Below are positions 9,056-56,962 of a stretch of 64,000 nt of DNA, piece after piece. The notes under the pieces are model-generated. The model searched no databases. It was given only the letters and a program-made list of their open reading frames with translations, and had not been told where the DNA came from. Source of the DNA: Mobula birostris (taxonomy: Eukaryota); assembly GCF_030028105.1 (NCBI RefSeq), contig NC_092382.1:53085764-53149763 (forward strand). The letters are read 5' to 3'. Position 1 is the first letter of the stretch, and every line of letters begins with the position of its first letter. The position numbers were made by a program, and so were the translations under genes.

Positions 9056-11409
9056 AGAAGTACTTGCATAAATAGGTAAACTACCTTCATACAAGCAAGG
9101 ACAGAAAACAGGGCAAAGTTAGTATACTTACTTATTCAGTAAGCTATGGGTCAAAGTATTTGGTAAGTACATTTCTAACTCTTCTGGCTTCAGTATTGTT
9201 TCTGTCTGTTCTGAAATTGTTAGGTTGTGTGGGGGGGGTTGCGTTCAAGAAAACAATGAAATGTCGCGCTGCCGCCATCTGTTCTGGCACGTCATGACAG
9301 CGTTTTTAAAAATATCCGTTTACCCCGTCCACACTGCTTTGCGCAATCGACGTTTACAAATTTACACACTCCGGAGGGCGTTGAAGAAAATCTCTGTTTT
9401 TGGGGGAGGAAAACACCATTTCAGTGTGGACAGAGGGTCAAAACGAAGACAGAAAGCTTTGGTTACGAATTTATCCAGTCTAGTGTGGACGTAGCCTTAG
9501 ATGAGTCAATTGTTTCATTTTCAGCATTGCCAGATTCATATATTTTGACAACAACACTCACAGATGCTGCCTGCTTGACAAAATAAGGCTTTATCATATT
9601 TATGTGTACCACCTGTGTTAGTTGACGTCGGTCGGGTGTTTTAGTAACATAATTCGCATCATTACTTTGAGAGACTATTTCATATGGTCCATTGAATTTC
9701 GCCTGAAGTGGATACGTCAACATTGGAAATAGGGCAAGCACCTTATTCCCCACCTCGTATTTTCTTCCGCAAGCCCACTTATCAAACCAACACTTCATTT
9801 TGTTTTGAGAAATCTTTAAGTTTTGTCTCACTAGACTACAAGCTTGGTGTAGTTTATTTTTGAACTTCAAAACAGTCTAACAGGTTAACATGTACATCCC
9901 CATCAAACCACTGTTCCTTTAACAAGGCCAAAGTTCCCCTCACTCTATGACCAAATACAAGTTCAAAAGGACTAAAGCCCAGTAATTCCTGTACCGGCTC
10001 TCTTACTGCGAACAAAAGCAAATGTATTCCTTCATCCCAGTCTTTTCCATTTTCAACACGGTATGTCTTAATCATTGTTTAGAGGGTAGAAGGAAATGTT
10101 TCTAAAGCCCCTTGTGATTCCGGATGGTACTCAGACAATGTAATTTGTTTAGCTCCCAGTTCATAAAATACCTGCTGGAACAATCCAGGTGTAATATTAC
10201 TTCCTTGATCAGACTGGATTTCTTTAGGTAAACCAAATAAAGTAAAAAACCTGTTAAGAGCTTTCGCCACAGTTTTAGCTTTAATATTTCTGAGAGTTAT
10301 TGCTTCTGGGAATCTGGATGCAGTACACATAATATTTAGCAAATACTGATGGCCAGATTCAGTCTTTGGCAATGGGCCAACACAATCCACTATAACTTTG
10401 GAAAAGGGTTCACCGAATACAGGTATAGCCAGAGTGGGCCACTGGGGTGACCTGATTAGGTTTACCCACAAATTGATAAGGGTGACAGGTTCTGCAAAAG
10501 GTCACAACATCTTTCCTTAAATTAGGCCAATAAAATTGTTCCATAATCCTGTTTACCATTTTATTCACTCTGAAATGGCCACCTCAGGGCATACTGTGGG
10601 CCAAAGCTAAAATTTTAGTCCTATAAACTTTAGGGACAACAACTTGGTGAACAATTGCCCATTCCTCACTCACAGGTATAGCAGGTGGCCTCCACTTCCT
10701 CATTAACACTCCATCCTTGAGATAATAGCCAACTGGTACTTTCTTAATCTCATTATCTGAGAAAGCTGTTTCTTTTAAAGCTTCAATCTCAGGGTCTTGG
10801 TTCTGTTCTGCTATAAACTCCTTCCTAGACAGGAATAAATCTTTCTTATCAGACTAACTACCTGAGTCCTGTTGAAACAAAGAAGGTAGAAGAGTCCCTG
10901 ATAAGTCATCATAACCTGAATCCCGATTTTGGCTGTCATGGGTATCAGAATCATGCTGCACAGAACTGTCTGCATTGGCAGACTTTTTAGCCATACTTTG
11001 AGTTACTGCGCAGGAAGGATAAATGTTAAAATCCATCTGTGGGTCGTCAGTGGTTGGCTTAGTTGTCAACTGCACTGCAGGAACGACTTTACCATCTGCC
11101 CGGTCATTCCCTAACAGCAAAGTAACATCTTCCACCGGTAAACTGGAGCATAATCCAATCTTAACAGGTCTCGAAACCAACCCTGACTAAAATTACCCTG
11201 TGCAGTGGCACAGAAACCATGCCACCCCCAATGCCTTTAATAAGATTTACCTCACCTATGTTAGTCTCATCATCAAACTTTAGAACACTGTCTAATGTAA
11301 GTGACTGAGAAGCCCCAGTATCTCAAAGAATTTTCATAGGTACCAGGGTTGACCTTTCCTTTACTAATACAAACCCATCTGACATAAAGTGATCGAATAC
11401 CTTCTGAAC

Positions 11410-13158: not shown

Positions 13159-13965
13159 TGTTACGAACCGTAATGCTTTAGAAACGAACCAGCAGCAATA
13201 GACTGGAGTCTGGTTTTGATGTGAAAACCACTATCTTTATCAGTGTCTACTTATAAATAATAACTTAAGCAAGATAAACAAAAGTTAACAGTGTTACGTG
13301 TATATATGTGTGGAAGTATTACTCCCAAGCTATTGAACGCAGGGGAAACAAGGCTTAGGGTTTTGAGATGATAAAGTATGAAAGTTCAATTCATCCATGG
13401 AATAGGTGATGAGACAGAGATATTTGTAATCCAGGGTAAATGTCCAGAGGAGGGAATCATGTCGAATTCCACAGGTTCCACGGTGGTAAAACAAGAGAAC
13501 AGTCGCTGTAGATTTTATCCGTCATCGTTCCAAATCCACATACGAATTATCACCGAAAGTGACTTGTCACAAGGGGTATCGTCCTCAAGTGAATTCCCAC
13601 ATCACACGCAGTCAAGGGTTAACACACAACTGGTCTTCACAGGATACCCCAAATCCAATCCACTCCTATAGTTCAAAAGAGGTGATAACCACACATTCGA
13701 TGTACACTGAATCGATAATTAACCCACCCTTGTGGGCATAGGAAAGTTCTAAACAGTGACCCTTGGCCACTAGTTCCTTTGTTTCGATCCTTCCATTTTA
13801 CCTCCTTCGTCTCTGTCTGACTCTGAGTGTCCGTGTCCTCGGTTAAATCTAAACAAGCTGCAAGCAATGTAAACAAGCCGTAAGTCAGACTGATTCACCT
13901 TCTTAATCTCTCTCTCTCTTTTAAAATGAATGTCCATAGCAAACAAAACCAAGGGATTCATAACA
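13159..13965 (-). mobile_element. 5' LTR of the Gmr1-like element (807 bp)
   Basis: TG...CA ends with an inverted repeat (tgttacgaa / ttcataaca, 8 of 9 match), followed on the minus strand by a PBS and gag. Confidence 0.88.
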
Positions 13966-15346
13966 ATGGCCACTCCCCAGTGTGAACTGACTGGTGTGCC
14001 AGTAGTTTGGAAGATTGAGTGAATCCTTTACCGCATTCTGAGCAGGTGAACGGCTTCTCCCCAGTGTGAACTCCCTGGTGTCTCTTTAGGTGGGATGCAT
14101 GAGTGAATCCCTTCCCACATTCTGAGCAGGTGAATGGCCACTCCCCACTGTGAACTGACTGATGTGCCAGTAGTTCAGATGACCGAGTGAATCCTTTCCC
14201 ACAGACTGAGCAGGTGAACGGCTTCTCCCCAGTGTGAACTCGTTGGTGTCTCTGTAGGGTGGATGAGTGAGTGAATCGCTTCCCACAGACTGAGCAGGTG
14301 AACGGCTTCTCCCCAGTGTGAACTCGCTGGTGACTCTGTCGGGTGGATGAATCAGTGAATCTCTTCCCACAGACTGAGCAGGTGAACGGCTTCTCCCCTG
14401 TGTGAACTCGCTGATGATTCTGCAGGTTGGATGACTGAGTGAATCCCTTCCCACATTCTGAGCAGGTGAACGGCTTCTCCCCAGTGTGAACTCGCTGGTG
14501 ACTCTGCAGGGTGGATGACTGAGTGAATCCCTTCCCACAGACTGAGCAGGTGAACGGCTTCTCCCCAGTGTGGACTCGCTGGTGTCTCAGTAGGGTGGAT
14601 GACAAAGTGAATCCCTTTCCACAGTCCGAGCAGGTGAATGGCTGCTCCCCAGTGTGAATTCGCTGGTGAGCCATTAGGTCAGATGACTGAGTGAATCTCT
14701 TCCCACAGACTGAGCAGGTAAATGGCTTCTCCCCAGTGTGAACTCGCTGGTGACTCTGCAGGTTGGATGAGTGGGTGAATCCCTTCCCACAGACTGAGCA
14801 GGTGAATGGCTTCTCCCCAGTGTGAACTCGCTGATGACTCTGCAGGTTGGATGACTGAGTGAATCCCTTCCCACAGAATGAGCAGGTGAATGGCTTCTCC
14901 CCAGTGTGAACTCGCTGGTGACTCTGTAGGGCAGATGAATCAGTGAAACTCATCCCACAGACTGAGCAGGTGAACGGCTTCTCCCCAGTGTGAACTCGAT
15001 GGTGTCTCTGCAGGGTGGAAGAGTGAGTGAATTTCTTCTCACAGACTGAGCAGGTGAATGGCTTCTCGCCAGTGTGAACTCGATGGTGTATCTGTAGGTT
15101 GGATGACTGAGTGAATTTCTTCCCACAGACTGAGCAGGTGAATGGCTTCTCCCCAGTGTGAACTCGATGGTGTTTCTGTAGGGTGGATGAATCAGTGAAT
15201 CTCTTCTCACAGACTGAGCAGGTGAACGGCTTCTCCCCAGTGTGAACTCGCTGATGTGTCAGTAGTTGAGATGACAATGTGAATCTCTTCCCACAGTCCG
15301 AGCAGGTGAATGGCCGCTCCCTGGTGTGAACTCGCTGGTGAGCCAT
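13958..15346 (-). CDS. Tandem C2H2 zinc-finger protein, 16 complete fingers, C-terminus truncated by the LTR
   Basis: 16 repeats of CxxC-x12-HxxxH with TGEKPF linkers. The last linker reads TGEWP-LL-stop, where the final codons and TGA come from the LTR start TGTTATGA. Confidence 0.9.
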
Positions 15347-15990
15347 TAGGCTAGATGAAAAAGTGAATCCCTTCCCACAGACTGAGCAGGTGAACAGCTT
15401 CTCCCCAGTGTGAATATGCTGGTGACTCTGTAGGATGGATTACAGTGTGAATCCCTTCCCACAGACTGAGCAGGTGAACAGCTTCTCCCCAGTGTGAATG
15501 TGCTGGTGACTCTGTAGGGTGGATTACAGAGTGAATCCCTTCCCACAGACTGAGCAGGAAAATGGTTTCTCTCCTGCGTGAACTCGCTGGTGTAACATTA
15601 GGTCAGATGACCAAGTGAATCCTTTACCAGAAATTGAGCAGATGACCAGCCTCCGATTGGTGTGTCCACAGGTGGGATGACCGACTGAATCTTTTCTCAC
15701 ACACAAAACAGATGAATGGCCTTGCACAGTGTGATCTTGCTGATGACCCTCAACTGAGATGGCCAAGTGAATCCATTTCCACTGTCTGAGCAGGTGAATG
15801 GCCTCTCCCCGTGTAAAACGACTGGCATGCCAGTTGGTCAAATGACCGAGTCAATCCCTCCCCACAGTCTGAGCAGGAAGGATGGTCGATTGAATCCCTT
15901 GCTCCACTTCTTAAATATCTAGACAGAGACAGCAAAACTGGCGCGTCGTGTTTGAGATTCCTGTAGACAAATTCCTTCTTGTGTTTAACC
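15347..15990 (-). pseudogene. Degenerate upstream zinc fingers in the same exon
   Basis: In-frame fingers carry TAA at 15440-15442 and 15524-15526, with further decayed fingers up to about 15900. Acceptor-like tttttacag|gtt near 15990. Confidence 0.75.
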
Positions 15991-17055: not shown

Positions 17056-17065
17056 AGGTAGAAGA

Positions 17066-17200
17066 AACAACACACACAAAATGCTGGAGGAACTCAGCAG
17101 GCCAGGCAGCATCTAAGGAAGAGTACTAATGCTGAATTCCTCCGGCAATTCGTGTGTGTTGCTTGGATTTCCAGCATCTGCAGATTTTCTCTCGTTTGTG
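17066..17200. repeat. Inverted pair of Penelope termini (hairpin)
   Basis: aacacacacaaaatgctggaggaactcagca ... tgctgaattcctccggcaattcgtgtgtgtt. Confidence 0.75.
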
Positions 17201-17787: not shown

Positions 17788-17985
17788 CAAATGTAAGAGA
17801 TTCTGCAGTTGCTGGAAATACAGAGACGCACACACACACAATGCTGGAGGAACTCTGCAGTTCAGGCAGCAAATGGGCAGCGGAGTTCATAGGCTAAGGA
17901 TACTGAGGGAGCTCGGCCTAAACGTTGTGTATTTATTCCTCTCCACATTTGCTGCCTGATCTGTTGATTTCCACCAGTAATTTAC
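17788..17985. repeat. Second inverted pair of Penelope termini with a decayed hammerhead
   Basis: tgctggaggaactc..caggcagcaaatg ... catttgctgcctga..tccaccag. Confidence 0.65.
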
Positions 17986-27835: not shown

Positions 27836-27844
27836 TGCTTCTAG

Positions 27845-28734
27845 TAGAGATAGTGACCATATTCATCCTGTCTCGGGGAAAGTGTGGCCTCTCCAGAGTT
27901 GTCAAATGCAGCTGGTTGCCATGGCCGTGGCGGATCTGCTGGTTCTTATCCTGGATCTGATACTGAGCAAGGTTTCACTTACGCACATGCCAATCGGCGC
28001 TTTCTTCCGCTCAATGACCACGGTGTAATATCCACGCTGCTCTGATTTACACCGTCACCGACTGTTCGGTCTGGTTCACCGTCACGTTCACCTCTGATCG
28101 AGTTGTCGCCATTTATTGCTTGAAACTGAAAACAAAATATTGCACCGGGAAAACTGTGGCCGTGGTTTTGGGGACAGTGACTGTGATCAGCTGTTTAAAG
28201 AATATGTATTGGTGTTTTAGGCTCTCAGAGAACTGCACGTGGACAATCAACCCATTCATTTGTTCACAGAGAGTTCTTGTTTTCAGTTTCATAACTCAAA
28301 TTGACCTATTTTATTACTTCCTCGACCCTGTACTGACATTTGTGCTGGTTCTAGTAACGAACGGTTTCACCGCCAGGCACGTCTTAGTCACCAGCAGAGC
28401 TCGCAGGAGACTCAGGGTTCCCGGCAATGGACAGAGTACCATAGACCCGGAGATGGAGAAACGCAGGAAATGCCTCGTTTTATTGCTGATCACTTCGGGG
28501 AATTTCATCGTGCTATGGGCACCTTTCACTGTTTATTCTGCGTGGTATCGGCTGAATGATTTTATCAACCCTGTGCGTCCGCCCGAATCGCTGAGAGAGC
28601 TGGGCATCATTCTGCAGCTTCTGAGCTGTTGTACAAACACGGCCCTTTACGCCGTTACACAGACCAAGTTCAGGGAACAGCTACAGAATATGGTAAATTC
28701 TGCGCTTGCTGTCATTGTTGTGAGGAAGTCGTGA
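27845..28734 (+). pseudogene. GPR139-like GPCR exon-2 pseudogene
   Basis: Colinear with 40087-40985. It has a 1-bp and a 2-bp deletion with a TGA at 27958 between them, DRF changed to DRV, and no exon 1. The 3' flank 28735-29190 is homologous to 40986-41430. Confidence 0.9.
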
Positions 28735-38302: not shown

Positions 38303-38401
38303 AACAACAGGAATTCTGCAGATGCTGGAAATTCAAGCAACACACATAAAAGTTGCTGGTGAACGCAGCAGGCCAGGCAGCATCTCTAGGAAGAGGTGCA
38401 G
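38303..38401 (-). mobile_element. Short Penelope terminal fragment
   Basis: aacaggaattctgcagatgctggaa...gcatctctaggaagaggt is nearly identical to 11410-11500. Confidence 0.85.
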
Positions 38402-38562
38402 TTATATTGTTAGTTTTTTTTAAATTTATTTTTGTAATTCGAATATATGTAATAGCAGCAGTGCTTATATACACACTTCTTCCTCAGCTACTGGGTAAAC
38501 CAAGGGTTAACTCTTTCTGTCATTTCATGGAAAATAAATAGCGCCTTTTCAAGGTAGGCTGC

Positions 38563-38891: not shown

Positions 38892-40086
38892 GTGAGTCTC
38901 TGTCCAAAGGTAACTTATGAAACAAAATTTAACTGCACATTTTCCTTTTGGCCTGTACCTCTCATAATAATAATTAAGGCTGCTGACACACATACCAGTT
39001 GATAATTAAGCAAATACACTTCGATAATTTACTGAATCCAGGACTCCTGCCTAAGGAAATATGTGCTAACACTTGTGATGATCCACAGCGGGTTTACAAC
39101 AACAGTGTATCTTATTATCTGTCTTATTCCTGTAGAAAGTGTAACCTTATTGTGAGCATTCCTTCTCCATTTCTCCCTGGTCGTTTTAACCAACATCAGT
39201 CGGAAGACAAATTTCACACAAACTTTAATCACTTTCCAACTTTCACGAGCTGCCTGAGTTTCCACTGAAGCAAGGGAAGCATCTCTCCGCGAATGTAATC
39301 AGGACGTCCCTCTCCTGCATCTGACCGTCTTCCTCCCCACTGTGTTCTTAAAACTGCATATTCCGTTTGGGATCAAAAATTATAGAATGTATATTTCACA
39401 CCAGGTGCATTTGACGATGTTTAAAGCCTAGGTAACACATTTCTGAAAACGTGATAGACTTCCGTAAGTTCTTGAAATATTGATCGTGACGTATTTTTAT
39501 GGTGACAAATCAACTTCATTCTTGCTGAGAAAATAAAACGTATTTGAGAATATAATGAATATCATACGAATATAAAGGCAAAGCTACAACAAATAGACGG
39601 TGAGCCTCGTGGTATAATTTGAAGAGAATAACACTCCCTCAAAGTCGAGAAACGGGAAGAGAGGTGCAATAATTGTGATTTGTGCTGCTGCTCCATTTGC
39701 AAATCCCGTTGCCCCTGGTGACGGTCAGCGGCGGGAAGCTGCTCTTTATCCAGAGGTGGTTCCTGTCAAGGATACTAACTTCACGACAGTCGAGATGCCG
39801 CAGATTTAATCGATGATGCGCTATTCGGCCCTTTGCCTCAAAAAGTACGAAATCCATCAATCGTCAGCCATCGTTATCTGTAACCTCCGCTCTCTGTTTC
39901 TTTACCGATATTCGGTCCAACATATTGCATTGAGTGTACACACATTTGCAAAGCAGTTTAACTTTTGCGATTGTTTTATTCTGTCAGGTACGCTCATTCT
40001 TGACATTGTCACATACAGAAAAGTGGATTACTTTATATGTAAATGCTTCCTGATGTGTTTACCCTCATTGATTCCTATCTTCGCAG

Positions 40087-40985
40087 TGAACATGGTGACC
40101 ATATTCGTCCTTTCTCGGGGAAAGTGCGGCCTCTCCAGAGTTGTCACTTGCTACCTGGTTGCCATGGCAGTGGCGGATCTGCTGGTTCTTATCCTCGACC
40201 TGATATTGAGCAAGATTCCACTTATGTACGTACCAATCGACGTTTTCTTCCGATCAATGACCAAGGGGTGTAATATCCACGCTGTTCTCCTTTACACCGC
40301 AACCGACTGCTCCGTCTGGTTCACGGTCACGTTTACCTTTGATCGGTTTGTCGCCATTTGTTGCCAGAAGCTGAAATCAAAATATTGCACCGAGAAAACC
40401 GCTGTCGTGGTTTTGGGGACAGTGAGTGCCATTGGCTTTTTAAAGAATATTTACTGGTATTTTAGACTCTCGGGGTACTACACGTGGATAGCTGTTCCAT
40501 TTATTTGTAGGGGGAGAGTGCATTATTTGAATTTATTTATCGCGACTCAATTTGAACTATTTTATTACATCCTCACCCCTGTATTCCCATTTGTGCTGGT
40601 TCTGCTGACGAATTGCTTCACCGCCAGGCACGTCTTAGTCACGAGCAGAGCGCGCAGGAGACTCAGTTTTCCTGGCAACGGACAGAGTGCCAGAGACCCG
40701 GAGATGGAGAAACGCAGGAAATACCTCGTTTTATTGCTGATCGTCTCGGGCAATTTCATCTTGCTGTGGGCACCTTTCACTGTGTATTCTGCGTGGAATC
40801 GGCTGTATGCTTTTGTCACGTATGTGCGCCCACCTGATTCGCTGCGAGAGCTGGGCGCCATTCTGCAGCTTCTGAGCTGTTGCACGAACACGGCCCTTTA
40901 CACCGTTACGCAGACCAAGTTCAGGGAGCAGCTAAAGAATGTGGTAAAATCACCGCTCTCTCTCATGTTTGTGAAGAACTCGTGA
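40087..40985 (+). CDS. GPR139-like class A GPCR, exon 2 (spliced CDS 1080 nt, 359 aa)
   Basis: Acceptor cgcag|TG joins exon 1 in frame (LP-V-NMVT). Motifs: MAVADLL, SVWFTVTFTFDRFVAIC, FILLWAP, SCCTNTALY, KFRE helix 8. No disabling lesions. Confidence 0.92.
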
Positions 40986-48800: not shown

Positions 48801-49940
48801 CACCAGTCCACCAAACCTCGAAGAGAGCCCAATAATATGTGTATACGATGCCCTTCCTCCTGCACAAATTGTTAGCCACACATTTACCTGTTCTTCCTTA
48901 GCATCTTTTCCCTCTTAAGCCCGTGATACGGGAAGTAATAGTGAGATCACTTTTCCGGAGTTGCCAGTTCTTAAGCCATAAACCTTCTTAGCTTCTCAAT
49001 TAACTTGTTTGGAAATTTTGAGGGACCTATAGACTTGCATAGCACGACTCCCCTGATCCTCCACACTGCAATAAAATCTGCCATTTGTGCTCTATAATCC
49101 AGTTTGAATTTTTATTATGTATCAGCTCGTACTGTTACTCATGGAAGTCCATCTATCACATCGTACCCCAGCTCTACACCGTGTCGACGTCCCATTGTAA
49201 CCTATGATGAAATTCTACACTATCCACAACAACAGCACATCGGTGTCCTTCATTCAATTAGAGATGAAGCTAAGAACAATGAGCCACGGAGCCCAGCAAC
49301 CTCAATGTTACTCTAGTCTAATCGCTAAGTTTTGTTTCCTTTTTTAACTTGGGAGAAAACCCATAAATATGATGGGGATTTCGTACAAATTCCTTCCAAA
49401 AAAACACCAGCATTGAACTCCGATTTCCAGTGCCCCGAGCTGGATTAGTCTGATTCTAAGCACTACGCTACGTGGAGCTTCAAACAGCAAGTTACCAACC
49501 CACATATGTACTTCCTCTTTCAAGTCGTTTACAAATATGAGAAAAAGTAGATCTCCTGGAAACGCCCCACCTACTGCCAGTCCCATACTCACTGGGCAAG
49601 GTAAGTCCAAACCCAGGCAGCTGAGTTTCCATCAGTCCCATGCCTCCCGACGTTCTGGGTGAATCTATTGCAGGGGCTCTTGTCAAGCGCCTCACTCAAT
49701 TCCATACATACAGCGTCCACCACTCTAGCCTTTGTTTTGTCAACCCCTCAGAAAGTCATTCAGGTGTGTAAGGCATGATCTTCCCCTCACAAAGCCATTT
49801 GACTGTTTCTAATTATGCTTCTACAAATATTTGTCAATCCTATCGCGAAGAATTCCCTTCAAATATTTAGCCTTCATTAATGCCAGGAGTCATGGTTATA
49901 CAATTAACAGGATTATCCTCACTACCTATTACCCGTCTTA
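45840..49940. mobile_element. Mosaic of old CR1 fragments, mostly minus strand
   Basis: Remnants such as TREGDRLDLV, LFLIFVNDL and aatactcaggatgtgg; individual boundaries are not resolved. Confidence 0.6.
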
Positions 49941-50396
49941 ACCAACCTTACATTTAGAGTTTATATTTAGATATCATCCCCTCACAATGAACATTAATTG
50001 ACATCACGGACCAACCACTGAATGATTCAGATTGATTCCTCAATTCAGTTTTGTCTGGAGTATGTAATATCTGAATACAAACTGCCGCTACTCTCATCAC
50101 CTTTCTAATTGTATAAACAATAATATCCCTCATCGCGTTTGTTTAGAGAGATCCTCCAATTTTCCAGTTGCATGAGTTCAAAATTAACTGAGCCTCTGTC
50201 CCATTAATTATCAAGTGTCTGTTTCTGTAACGCTGTCCTTTTCAACCATTATTCGCTTGTTCTTTGTCCAGGGTCGGTTCTGTGTTGGCACAGCCGAACA
50301 TCTCGTTGACACTGACTAGGATTAGACCAAACACAAACAAGAGGAGCTCTGCAGATTTTAGAAATCCAAAACGCTGGAGGAGTTCTGCAGACCAGG

Positions 50397-52211
50397 CAGC
50401 ATCTATGGAGAAGAGTAAACTGTGGACATCAGCATCTATGGAGAAGAGTAAACTGTGGACATCAGCATCTATGGAGAAGAGTAAACTGTGGACATCAGCA
50501 TCTATGGAGAAGAGTAAACTGTGGACATCAGCATCTATGGAGAAGAGTAAACTGTGGACATCAGCATCTATGGAGAAGAGTAAACTGTGGACATCAGCAT
50601 CTATGGAGAAGAGTAAACTGTGGACATCAGCATCTATGGAGAAGAGTAAACTGTGGACATCAGCATCTATGGAGAAGAGTAAACTGTGGACATCAGCATC
50701 TATGGAGAAGAGTAAACTGTGGACATCAGCATCTATGGAGAAGAGTAAACTGTGGACATCAGCATCTATGGAGAAGAGTAAACTGTGGACATCAGCATCT
50801 ATGGAGAAGAGTAAACTGTGGACATCAGCATCTATGGAGAAGAGTAAACTGTGGACATCAGCATCTATGGAGAAGAGTAAACTGTGGACATCAGCATCTA
50901 TGGAGAAGAGTAAACTGTGGACATCAGCATCTATGGAGAAGAGTAAACTGTGGACATCAGCATCTATGGAGAAGAGTAAACTGTGGACATCAGCATCTAT
51001 GGAGAAGAGTAAACTGTGGACATCAGCATCTATGGAGAAGAGTAAACTGTGGACATCAGCACCTATGGAGAAGAGTAAACTGTGGACATCAGCATCTATG
51101 GAGAAGAGTAAACTGTGGACATCAGCACCTATGGAGAAGAGTAAACTGTGGACATCAGCATCTATGGAGAAGAGTAAACTGTGGACATCAGCACCTATGG
51201 AGAAGAGTAAACTGTGGACATCAGCATCTATGGAGAAGAGTAAACTGTGGACATCAGCACCTATGGAGAAGAGTAAACTGTGGACATCAGCATCTATGGA
51301 GAAGAGTAAACTGTGGACATCAGCACCTATGGAGAAGAGTAAACTGTGGACATCAGCATCTATGGAGAAGAGTAAACTGTGGACATCAGCATCTATGGAG
51401 AAGAGTAAACTGTGGACATCAGCATCTATGGAAAAGAGTAAACTGTGGACATCAGCATCTATGGAGAAGAGTAAACTGTGGACATCAGCATCTATGGAGA
51501 AGAGTAAACTGTGGACATCAGCATCTATGGAAAAGAGTAAACTGTGGACATCAGCATCTATGGAGAAGAGTAAACTGTGGACATCAGCATCTATGGAAAA
51601 GAGTAAACTGTGGACATCAGCATCTATGGAGAAGAGTAAACTGTGGACATCAGCATCTATGGAGAAGAGTAAACTGTGGACATCAGCATCTATGGAAAAG
51701 AGTAAACTGTGGACATCAGCATCTATGGAGAAGAGTAAACTGTGGACATCAGCATCTATGGAGAAGAGTAAACTGTGGACATCAGCATCTATGGAAAAGA
51801 GTAAACTGTGGACATCAGCATCTATGGAAAAGAGTAAACTGTGGACATCAGCATCTATGGAGAAGAGTAAACTGTGGACATCAGCATCTATGGAGAAGAG
51901 TAAACTGTGGACATCAGCATCTATGGAGAAGAGTAAACTGTGGACATCAGCATCTATGGAGAAGAGTAAACTGTGGACATCAGCATCTATGGAGAAGAGT
52001 AAACTGTGGACATCAGCATCTATGGAAAAGAGTAAACTGTGGACATCAGCATCTATGGAAAAGAGTAAACTGTGGACATCAGCATCTATGGAGAAGAGTA
52101 AACTGTGGACATCAGCATCTATGGAAAAGAGTAAACTGTGGACATCAGCATCTATGGAGAAGAGTAAACTGTGGACATCAGCATCTATGGAGAAGAGTAA
52201 ACTGTGGACAT
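50397..52211. repeat. 33-bp tandem array, exactly 55 copies
   Basis: Unit cagcatctatggagaagagtaaactgtggacat; 1815 bp = 55 x 33; only two variant types; embedded in a Penelope terminal sequence. Confidence 0.98.
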
Positions 52212-52224
52212 TTTGGGCAGAATT

Positions 52225-52226
<2 letters not shown>

Positions 52227-52257
<31 letters not shown>
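52227..52257. repeat. (CT)n microsatellite
   Basis: About 15 CT dinucleotides. Confidence 0.9.
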
Positions 52258-52259
<2 letters not shown>

Positions 52260-52999
52260 GTCCTGTTGCCTGAGCTGAAGCTTTTCTCCAGCACTATGTG
52301 TAGGATTAGACCACATCAGTTCCCAGTTTCTTCACTGTGTCTTTTGTTCTGGGTTCACAGCATCTCCTCTTCCACTCAACCACACCTCCCGCCCCCCCCC
52401 CGCCCCAGCAACTCTTTCTCTGAGAGCTAAAATTCTGACACTGAAAGTTAGTTCAAACGGGAAAACAAAAGCAAAAGTAGAGACAGAAGAGAAAAAGATC
52501 GCGAAGGAAAGGACAGGTAATGATGGGAACAGGAGTGCTTGATACCGACGAAATTATACTCCAAAAACAGACAGTTTTGTCAGAATCGGGAAGAAGGGGT
52601 GACAGGTTCGCCTCAGGATTCAATTTCAGTGTGGCGAGGGTGAGATGCAAAGGAGATTTTTCTGGGATGCTGAGGCCACTGGTGCCGTCGGGATCGACTG
52701 TAAATAGCTGTTTTATAACTGTAAGGCAACACACACAAAATGCTGGAGCAACTCAGCAGATAGGGGGCAACTTTGGAAAAAAGTAAACATTCAACTATTC
52801 GGGCCGACAATCTTCACGATTTCGTGTGCGTTCTGTATTTCGAGCATCGACCGAGTTTCTCATGCTTTGTTTGTAACTCTGTTCATCGTATTGTTTCCGT
52901 TTGCTCACAAGTGGGAGTACAGAATAGGGACATGAAAGCAGCTGAATTGTACCACTGCACAGCATTTATTTATATCCGCTGAATGAGTTTCAAAATCCA

Positions 53000-53877
53000 T
53001 TACAGTGGGTATATCACCGCATTCTTGAGGTCCTCTCGGAATTTGCTCTGAGTCAGGGCGTAAATGCACGTGTTGGTGCAGGAACTGATGATCTGAAGCA
53101 TTCCCGATGTCTCTTGTACAATGTAAACAGGATGCATGACAGAATAATAAACAAAACTCATTGAAATCCGTTAATAGATATAAAATACCAAACGTGTTCC
53201 GCACAACAATATGAAACTACCGGTTATGCTGAAGAGCAAAACGATGGATTTGCGTCGGTTCTCCATCTCCCGGTCCTTGTCATTCTCTCCACTCTTTTGT
53301 CCCCGGAGCCTTCTGCGGGCTCGACTGGCCACTAGAATCCGCCTGGCTGTCAGAATATTGAACAACAAAATCAGAAAGAATGGGACACAAGGGGTAAAAA
53401 TGCGGTGAAGCATCTCAAATACCGCCCATGAAGAAGAGTATTTGTAGCTCGATGTAGGAACACAATACCAGGGAACACCATCAATTATTACAAGAGGTTC
53501 AGAAGTAAAGCCCCAAGGGACATTCTCCAAACAGGCCAGCACACTCACTGACCCGATAACCACAGCCGCCGTTCTCTCGGTGCAATATTTTGTTTTTAGC
53601 TTCTCACAGCAAATAGCCACAAATCGATCGACGGTGAAAGCGACAGTTAGCCAGACAGAGGCCGCGGTGCTCGCAAAAATCAACCATCTGGCGAGACTGC
53701 ACACAGGAGTAATGAACAGGAATGATCGGCGAAAGTAAATCCAAGCAGTCCACATCAGCAGCGGTTGCGAGATAACGACCAGGAGATCGGCCGCTGCCAT
53801 TCCCACCAGGTAGCGAGTAACACATTTGGAGAGACCGCACTTTCCACGGGAGAGGATCGCAATCGCCACCAAGTTCG
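53000..53877 (-). pseudogene. GPR139-like GPCR exon 2 with a premature TAA at 53171-53173
   Basis: Acceptor ttccag|CG; [35 protein letters not shown]. After the TAA the frame continues for 56 codons through TM7 (SSCTNTCIY) and helix 8 (KFRE). Confidence 0.9.
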
Positions 53878-54983
53878 CTGGAAGAGAGACAGAAAATAGC
53901 AAATTGAGAAAAAACTGAGCAGAACCCAATGCAGCAGTTTTCGGGGATCATCTAATATTTGGACTTTAATGCTGCATTTAACGGTAGAAAGTTGAAGAGA
54001 GGTCCAAGAGCTGATTGAGTTTATACATTAAAATAAAGCCAAATGATTTGAATTTGGATTCCTTTCTGATGACCAAAATGTGAAGAGGCAGCGGAAAGAT
54101 AAAGCTCGGTAACCTCAGAGTCAGTGCTGGTTGGAACATTTTCTATCGGCTTCATCCGCGTCTGATATGAATGAAATTAATAAATCTGGACGCTGATGGC
54201 GGGATTCTTGCATTAGACAATCATCAACTTCCATGCAACTCCCTGTCAGCGACAGAATAGCCGAAGGACGAAACAGAAACAGGAAATCCTGGAACCACTC
54301 ATCCAGGCAAAATTGAATATGTGGGAAAGCAGTTAGCGTGTATTTTGTTGGAACTGTTTACAGAGAGCCCCTATGACACGACTTTCTCTTTCTATAGATG
54401 CTACTTTGTGCCTCTAGCATTCCCCGTGTTTGTTCCCTATTGCAGCATTTCTCACCTCGCTGATTTTACAACAGAACATTGTCCGAGGCAGCAGTCACAG
54501 CGAGGTCTGATACAGCCTCACAGATATACTCGAAGCCTCCGACTGAATCCATCACAGCGAAGCCGGGGAGAGGGATTCAACGTCCAGTAGCAGACCCGGT
54601 GACGCAGTGGAATGTCTGTAGAGGGGTCAGATGTGGATATGATAGAATACACTTCACAGTATTGATCAGCAGCGACGTCACTGTGTTGTCCAACAACTGT
54701 TTTATTTTCTGTCACACCGCACACATTTACTAAAAATCCTCAAGTTCCATGCTGCAACATGGAACTCATCACATTTCCTAAATCGTTATCACTAATCGAT
54801 GGTTTGATCATTACACGTGGCTCACACGACCGCTGACATACCAATGCAGACCAATTGTTATCATCTCCACAGCAGTATAAACACAATATTGGCAAATGCA
54901 GTGTAGCTGCTTCGAGACCAAAAGCACAGAGACCCGAGCATTACATCATTGAAACACAAACCGCTGGAAGAAATCCGCCTGCC

Positions 54984-55663: not shown

Positions 55664-56962
55664 AACCCTGCTGACTCTCACAGCTATCTGGACTATTCCT
55701 CTTCTCACCCTGTCTCTTCTCGCAATTCCTCCGTCTCCGCCGCATCTCCTCTCAGGATGAGGTTTTTCATTCCAGGACGAAGGAGATGTCCTCCTTTTTT
55801 AAAGAAAGAGGGTTCCCTTCCTCCACCATCAACTCTGCTCTCAAACGCATCTCCCCCATTTCACACACATCTGCTCTCACTCCATCTTCCCTCCACCCAA
55901 CTAGGAATAGGGTTCCCCTGGTCCTTACCTGCCACCCCACCAGCCTCCACGTCCAACATATAATTCTCCGTAACTTCCGCCACCTCCGACGGGATCCCAA
56001 CACTAAGCACATCTTTCCCTCCCCGCCCCGCCCCCGCCTCCACTCTCTGCTTTCTGCAGGGACCGCTCCCTACACGACTCCCTTATCCATTCGTCCCCCC
56101 ACCCCCACCCTGGCCCCCATCCGCCCCCACGATATCCCTCCTGACACTTATCCTTGTAAGCAGAACAAGTGCTACACATGCCCTTACACTTCCTCCCTCA
56201 CTACACTTCAGGGCCCCAGACAGTCCTTCCAGGTGAGGCGACACTTCACCTGTGAGTCGGCTGGGGTCATATACTGCGTCCGGTGCTCCCGATGCGGCCT
56301 TCTATATGTTGGCGAGACCCGACGCAGACTGGGAGATCGTTTCACTGAACACCTGCGCTCTGTCCACCAGAGAAAGCTGGAGTTCCCAGTGGCCACACAT
56401 TTTAATTCCACGTCCCATTCCCATTCTGATATGTCTAACCCCAGCCTCCTCTACTGTAAAGGTGAAGCCATACTCAGGTTGGAGGAACAACACCTTATAT
56501 TTCGTCTGGGTAGCCTCCAACCTGATGGCATGAACATTGACTTCTCAAACTTCTGCTAATCCCCTACTTCTCCCTCGTACCCCGTCCGTTATTTATCTAT
56601 TTATATACACACATTATTTTTCTCTCTCTCTCCTTTTTCCCCCTCTGTCCCTCTCACTATACCTCTTGCCCATCCTCTGGGCTTCCCCCTCCCCCATTTC
56701 TTTCTCCCTAGGCCTCCTGTCCCATGATCCTCTCATATCTGCTTTGCCAATCACCTGTCCAGCTCTTGGCTCCATCCCTCCCCCTCCTGTCTTCTCCTAT
56801 CATTTTGGATCTCCCCCTCCCTCCCCCTCCAACTTTCAAATCTCTTACTCACTCTTCCTTCAGTTAGTCCTGACGAAGGGTCTCGGTCTGAAACGTCGAC
56901 TGTACCTCTTCCTAGAGATGCTGCCTGGCCAGCTGCATTCACCAGCAACTTTGATGTGTGTT
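55664..56962 (+). mobile_element. Penelope-like element: RT C-terminus, GIY-YIG endonuclease and 3' UTR
   Basis: DSHSYLDYSSSHP, FKERGFP, FTCESAGVIYCVRCSRCGLLYVGETRRRLGDRFTEH, VATHFN, EQHLIFRLGSLQPDGMN. Confidence 0.95.
56866..56901 (+). ncRNA. Minimal type I hammerhead ribozyme motif (Penelope)
   Basis: Stem I AGUC/GACU, core CUGACGA, stem II GGG..UCU (with wobble pairs), then GAAAC-GUC; predicted cleavage after 56897. Confidence 0.8.

Follow-up and report, generated by a model that had tools for sequence, protein, structure and literature searches.

A 55-copy minisatellite in one arm of a Penelope-like insertion of Mobula birostris, probably a product of post-insertion duplication and host turnover

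Transposons are the source of about one quarter of human minisatellites (PMC3389668). The survey behind this estimate, which counts arrays with units of at least 20 bp, a G+C content of at least 40%, at least two copies that are at least 95% alike and an overlap with a transposon of at least one period, lists 7,276 transposon-derived minisatellites in the human genome, 6,817 of them without flanking direct repeats or a short last unit (PMC3389668). It also notes that tandem repeats arise in greater number from younger transposons and that retrotransposition may contribute to their initiation (Ahmed and Liang, PMC3389668). The available part of a review of minisatellites makes no mention of Penelope (PMC9659126). 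In our own literature search, which missed most subscription journals, we found neither a published minisatellite derived from Penelope nor a report of reiterative synthesis by the reverse transcriptase (RT) of a Penelope-like element (PLE).

We analysed a window of 64,000 nucleotides of Mobula birostris (NC_092382.1, positions 53,085,764 to 53,149,763 of the forward strand; positions below are counted from its first letter). On the minus strand, at 50397-52211, it carries a minisatellite of 55.0 units of 33 bp, each unit corresponding to -5 to +28 of a PLE end, counted from its predicted hammerhead cut. TRF gave a period of 33, 55.0 copies, 98% matches and 0% indels for this interval, and the exact 33-bp periodicity begins with base 50397 and ends with base 52211. 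A previous sequence-only reading had described a 55 x 33-bp satellite; the tandem array and its copy number are confirmed, and a single 1.8-kb minisatellite is the better term. With a 33-bp unit, a counted G+C of 14/33, 55 copies that are 98% alike and a transposon overlap of at least one period, the array falls within the limits of the human survey (PMC3389668). Like the transposon-derived minisatellites described in PMC3389668 and PMC9659126, it is an internal piece of one element copy, repeated head to tail and in register with both flanks of its parent copy. Like 6,817 of the 7,276 human cases, it has no flanking direct repeat (PMC3389668), and its expansion appears to have been local and block-wise. 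In contrast to the human cases of that survey, its parent is Penelope-like and not an Alu, L1 or ERV, and its 55 units compare with means of 2.3-2.4 units for Alu (PMC3389668). The array is a further, ordinary case of a transposon-derived minisatellite, with a Penelope-like parent. No function is implied; a coding role of the unit was considered and rejected, three of its six frames being open, about the chance level for 11 codons.

The array occupies part of one arm of a short Penelope-like insertion (50330-52300) whose two arms are inverted, head to head. The whole insert is bracketed by a perfect 13-bp direct repeat on the plus strand (left copy 50317-50329, right copy 52301-52313), the longest exact match between the two flanks. 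These are its only two copies in the window, and a 13-bp flank match appeared in none of 2000 shuffles; it is the probable target-site duplication of the insertion. The left arm (50330-50396, minus strand) is a Penelope-like 3' end that includes the second 'tail' end and reaches to about +100 from the cut. Alignment to other copies in the window shows an internal deletion of ~13 nt in this arm, and blastn matched it to the copies at 11407, 17077, 17200 and 38303. The array flanks align with 17077-17125 at 84% over 51 nt (E 5e-10). Beyond the array, at 52212-52221 (minus strand), the 5' end of the left arm retains a remnant of helix II and the GAAA junction, recognizable by alignment to native copies and to the loose-end consensus, its CpGs lost. 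The right arm (52222-52300, plus strand) is an inverted, element-sense 3' end, tail-less and internally shortened, with its endpoint at about +60 from the cut. Its start region holds a (TC)15 run at 52228-52257 (TRF) and weakly resembles a pyrimidine-rich 3' UTR (E 0.13), and 52264-52301 matches the copies at 17834-17871 (79%, E 6e-5) and 17074-17111 (74%, E 0.005).

The flanks had previously been read as a Penelope end, which blastn and alignment support; more precisely, the copy that hosts the array forms one of two inverted arms within an insertion edged by a 13-bp repeat. This copy shows 5' truncation, an inverted partner and a 30-40 bp tail on one end. It shares with the inverted 5'-truncated PLE insertions of Craig et al. 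2021 (PMC8557442) and Frangieh et al. 2024 (PMC11167929) the head-to-head arms, the one-ended tail and the min-hammerhead remnant, as well as two clusters of 3' ends ~35-40 nt apart. It differs from those insertions in that the array copy has no ORF, carries a minisatellite in one arm and has a discernible 13-bp repeat. Two further short inverted pairs of element ends, at 17065-17199 and 17795-17983, are without an array.

The window carries many ends of the same family. A relative from a related subfamily, outside the array locus, occupies 55675-56962 (plus strand) and consists of a 5'-truncated ORF end, a 3' UTR and an intact min-hammerhead. Its ORF (55675-56559) has a GIY-YIG Pfam match of 19.4 bits (E 0.001), under the cut-off of 22.6, and is 37% identical over the whole query (E 2e-49) to the RT-bearing protein P0001, whose precomputed domains include PF00078; a direct Pfam scan of P0001 gave GIY-YIG only. 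The combination of an RT with a C-terminal GIY-YIG domain was found through this related copy in the window and not through the array copy. Upstream of GIY-YIG, the ORF at 55.7-56.6 kb contains a C-x4-CxxC linker. Because a CX2-5CxxC linker marks the Neptune and Nematis clades and not Penelope/Poseidon (PMC8557442), the family would belong to one of the former; it appears to be a Neptune-type PLE, with a linker that fits Neptune or Nematis.

The intact min-hammerhead motif of the relative, at 56864-56903, is the single match in the window with a helix I of at least 4 bp. An Rfam scan of the window returned no hammerhead, its four matches being unrelated and all below gathering score. The GAAAC-GTC junction and helix II are present in the family loose ends of all four sequencing runs compared, and the array copy keeps a mere remnant of the min-hammerhead. 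A 15-mer of the hammerhead junction occurs four times in the window at up to two mismatches, against 0.06 expected; together with the alignment, this bears out the earlier observation that the last unit plus flank matches the stem II-GAAAC-GUC-stem I junction. The 3' ends of the family in the window cluster at +57 to +69 and at +91 to +103 from the cut. These two clusters are likely the starts of reverse transcription; two internal RT start sites are known in an anole PLE (Frangieh et al. 2024, PMC11167929).

Two other element copies deserve mention. The young-looking end at 38303-38403 (minus strand; 96% alike to the copy at 11.4 kb across 101 nt) has its 5' end exactly at the predicted hammerhead cut. 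It may be the cDNA of a cleaved RNA, although as one among about nine truncated ends it could also lie there by chance. Near the element copy whose tail end lies at 1745, a G+C-rich 28-bp tandem repeat of 4.8 copies (1584-1718) ends 27 bp away.

The sequence-only reading offered two origins for the array: slippage or unequal exchange that took place recently in an old copy, or reiterative, telomerase-like copying by the PLE RT, in which a 33-nt segment would have been copied 55 times near the ribozyme-cleaved RNA end. The latter draws on the sister-group relationship of PLE RTs and telomerase RTs (PMC8557442), on the telomerase-reminiscent template slippage reported for the eel LINE UnaL2 (PMC1636434), and on the array's plus strand corresponding to the cDNA. 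The cut site itself is a prediction based on the min-HHR model (Cervera and de la Pena 2014, PMC4209133) and falls, in unit 1, between +50424 and +50425. On the element (minus) strand, the unit runs from -5 to +28 relative to this cut and keeps GTC, and the flank extends a further 10 nt upstream. The alignment agrees with the earlier statement that the unit starts 5 nt before the predicted cut, keeps the GUC and lacks the core. Since a cleaved 3' product starts at +1, whereas the unit reaches 5 nt and the flank 15 nt beyond the cut, the template must have been uncleaved or the copying DNA-based.

Telomerase repeat addition needs an alignment region that re-pairs the nascent 3' end at the start of the template, and its template boundary is set by a helix. 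In contrast, no alignment region is present here, with zero exact microhomology at either edge of the array, as the sequence-only reading had also noted. The array resembles the products of UnaL2 slippage and of telomerase in that a short unit is repeated on the cDNA strand of a retroelement, but UnaL2 slippage uses a pre-existing repeat at the RT start (PMC1636434), and the array unit is neither repeated beforehand nor located at such a start: it is internal, away from both 3' end clusters of the family. In the anole PLE, cleavage was dispensable in vitro and no RNA reads ended at the hammerhead cut (PMC11167929). Moreover, the array copy cannot self-cleave: on the element strand, both CTGAnGA and GAAA are absent from the left arm and array, and its helix I strand fails to pair with a native partner (+0.3 versus -3.7 kcal/mol). 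Each unit junction (50429-50430 and every later one) reads CTGATGT on the element strand, six of the seven core letters, by coincidence and without an accompanying GAAA or helix II.

The nearness of one unit boundary to the ribozyme cut is a coincidence of the kind expected about once in six by chance: of the 2,870 segments of 20-60 bp that can be drawn from the left arm, 16% start or end no more than 5 nt from the cut. No microhomology is found in 55% of the same segments. Another feature near the boundary is helix II, which folds in a native copy and whose base is 3 nt away; such nearness is not improbable by chance. The unit boundaries coincide with neither cluster of family 3' ends.

The distribution of variants within the array points to copying between units. 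There are three unit types, A (n=41), B (n=9) and C (n=5), and only two of the 33 columns are variable, at unit positions 6 and 14. Each variant occurs in five or nine units, and there is no singleton in 1,815 bp. The C units are units 21, 23, 25, 27 and 29, in alternation and within nine consecutive units (P 0.0008); the alternating CACACACAC run was seen in 0 of 200,000 shuffles. The B units lie between units 32 and 53, a span of 22 units (P 0.001, permutation). An array of the same age as the insertion would be expected to carry ~48 private substitutions (from half the divergence of organism C, described below), and none was observed. Because the variants are clustered, singletons are lacking and about 48 private changes were expected, we conclude that units were copied from neighbouring units, in blocks and recently. 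A single RNA template cannot yield the same variant five times at alternate units, and telomerase-like copying would be expected to leave independent errors rather than two clustered, multi-unit variants.

The units also carry the decay of their genomic host copy. Compared with the family loose-end consensus, the unit has three differences within the nine positions 50421-50429; two of these fall on CpG sites, and two further CpGs have disappeared from the flank past the unit. The decay states at 50421-50429 are common to all 55 units, a further point against telomerase-like copying. The contrast drawn earlier between a degenerate host copy, which has lost its hammerhead core and CpGs, and a nearly homogeneous array, 98% alike, holds. 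Taken together, a segment that crosses the cut, the missing alignment region and variants that need unit-to-unit copying at the DNA level leave the telomerase-like origin very improbable, and at this locus it is already largely refuted.

The first, last and most internal units are identical, so that the seed pair was presumably identical when expansion began. We infer that the seed duplication postdates the decay; strong homogenization could blur this order. Continuous homogenization could likewise erase the age of an older seed. For this reason, the variant map and the divergence of the relatives date the turnover and not the first duplication, and only the identity of the first, last and most internal units bears on the seed.

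Contigs of related organisms help to place the insertion in time. Four of the 16 listed runs, one per organism code and all consisting of contigs, were compared with 49600-50462 and gave 2,612, 126, 2,965 and 899 matched contigs. Most of these fall on the element end, which indicates that the element family is abundant. The relatives compared are 3-8% diverged. One contig of organism C matches 49865-50409 with 29 differences in 545 (5%), one of organism B matches 50150-50396 with 20 differences and two gaps (8%), and both bridge the target duplication and the left arm. As each bridges the edge of the insertion, the latter would predate the splits from organisms B and C, unless the bridging contigs are paralogous segments, as they may be. 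In organism D, whose share of words was 0.05, two contigs reach only 13-14 letters past the target duplication, short of the 31 letters required for bridging, and these were not scored as the insertion.

The repeat junction was detected in two of the four runs, those of organisms A and B. In organism A it is a 12-letter loose end. In organism B it is a 63-nt contig that is identical to 50411-50462 and has 19 letters left of the junction; this contig is under the 31-letter bridging rule and is not tied to the array flank by any contig, and it was accepted because monomer copies cannot yield its match. The depth of the last bin in organism A is 2,372, compared with 110-140 for flank contigs (~19x), summed contig depth being no measure of copy number. 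The junction contig of organism B has a depth of 10.8 against 3-7.75 in the flank (~2x), with the same caveat that contig depth gives no copy number. Organisms C and D have last-bin depths of 639 and 30, to which paralogous ends on the second unit may contribute.

These data also bear on the possibility that the array is genuine and its length of 55 copies inflated or mis-assembled. The evidence consists of contigs, none of which, among the pieces listed, spans the array stretch, and the junction contig of organism B reaches only about twice the flank depth. On the other hand, the structured variant map would be unlike a collapse or expansion error, and the junction occurs in organism A at a depth far above that of the flank, within the limits of summed contig depth. 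An inflated length seems to us distinctly improbable.

The array flank looks multi-copy in the runs: it shows several classes, by depth and by variants, which would be expected if it belonged to a duplicated part of a gene cluster. In the window, three single-exon GPCR genes that are related to one another form a cluster, at 27844-28734, 39810-40985 and 53003-53917. The last (minus strand) is a rhodopsin-family gene with an in-frame stop at 53171-53173; its frame continues past the stop and matches its paralog (44% over 317 aa), which makes a pseudogene the probable interpretation. Judging from a poly(A)-like signal at 52970, the array would lie outside the GPCR transcript. Elsewhere in the window, a C2H2 zinc-finger array with an 84-bp period and ~20 copies, in an open frame of 493 aa, lies at 13958-15877 (plus strand). 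No match to the element end was found in viral contigs. Tandem copies of the unit start were found at 16 loci in metagenomes; none of the 16 has a blastn match to the array-masked window, and they were dismissed as unrelated.

The tandem repeats of non-LTR retrozymes likewise come from the hammerhead region of PLE ends (bioRxiv 10.64898/2026.07.22.740005; PMC4209133), and repeats of this kind, derived from PLE pLTRs, are reported in the one cartilaginous fish sampled (bioRxiv 10.64898/2026.07.22.740005). It is nevertheless extremely unlikely that the array is a retrozyme or another mobile tandem RNA unit. Unlike retrozymes, its units have no catalytic core, are shorter and show no sign of mobility. 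The hammerhead is absent from every unit, whereas by the definition given in the preprint two or more consecutive units must each contain a complete type I hammerhead, and 33 bp is under the reported range of 51-972 bp (bioRxiv 10.64898/2026.07.22.740005). The unit has no fold (z +1.7 for three units), the array is in register inside its parent copy and, among the matches listed, a single X1 contig has a loose end before 50397.

Tandem duplication after insertion, followed by minisatellite turnover in the host, is in our view very probably the origin of this transposon-derived minisatellite. The other origin named in the sequence-only reading, by which an old copy recently underwent slippage or unequal exchange, is in line with it, being supported by the fixed decay states, the clustered variants and the insertion edge in diverged relatives. 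A Neptune-type PLE would first have inserted as a short head-to-head pair of 5'-truncated ends with a one-sided tail, producing the 13-bp target duplication; the anatomy of this step is observed, its mechanism conjectural. The copy then decayed in place, as seen in the loss of the hammerhead core and CpGs. A blunt 33-bp tandem duplication would have followed the decay. The simplest route would be the fill-in and end-joining of a staggered break, which is free of microhomology; small tandem duplications are known to arise via end-joining at staggered breaks (PMC8355091). Slippage on imperfect homology could be an alternative route. Finally, units or blocks were multiplied to 55 copies by a process that may have been unequal exchange, gene conversion or slippage, the copying itself being visible in the variant map. 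We also considered a duplication driven by a hairpin and rejected it, since the arms of the one-unit form fold together no better than shuffles (z -0.8). As DNA, the array units show barely any folding.

Alternatively, the seed could have been made by the machinery of the element at integration, with an RT that halted at helix II and resumed, without homology, 33 nt further back, leaving a very short partial tandem that the host could have homogenized and expanded later. PLE insertions are often partial tandems (PMC8557442), the RT of the anole PLE starts internally at sites non-homologous to the primer (PMC11167929), and the boundary 3 nt from helix II without microhomology would suit such an event. 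The repeat junction also exists in organism B, which argues for a seed older than the lineage of the window. However, the first and last units are identical and share the same decay states, and the re-entry point at +28 falls outside both clusters of family 3' ends. Furthermore, the two other readable go-back joints, found among the 2,612 X1 contigs, have different boundaries, ~12 nt beyond and 8 nt short of the array boundary. These paralog joints run from 50413 to 50387, with 28 letters between and a period of ~55 bp, and from 50419 to 50374, with two letters between and a period of ~48 bp. A third joint, from 50429 to 50393 in X1 and X10, was considered as a common boundary and set aside as uninformative: the family likeness stops at 50429, and the intervening letters are unread. 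A seed of this kind is, on balance, unlikely.

Helix II, whose base is 3 nt away from the boundary, offers a plausible RT pause site. The more general proposition, that PLE RTs stall at the hammerhead helix II and re-initiate ~30 nt back without homology, thereby seeding duplications with fixed boundaries, is slightly less likely still. If it were true, the hammerhead region would be a recurrent birthplace of minisatellites, the expansion to 55 copies still being the work of the host, and it would offer a present-day clue to how an RT of the PLE type might start to synthesize repeats. Should many independent arrays have the same boundaries, genome sequences could be used to test whether the RTs most closely related to that of telomerase synthesize repeats. 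The array described here, which we attribute to duplication after insertion and host turnover, may itself serve as a length-polymorphic marker, and at this locus the order of insertion, decay, duplication and expansion can be neatly reconstructed.
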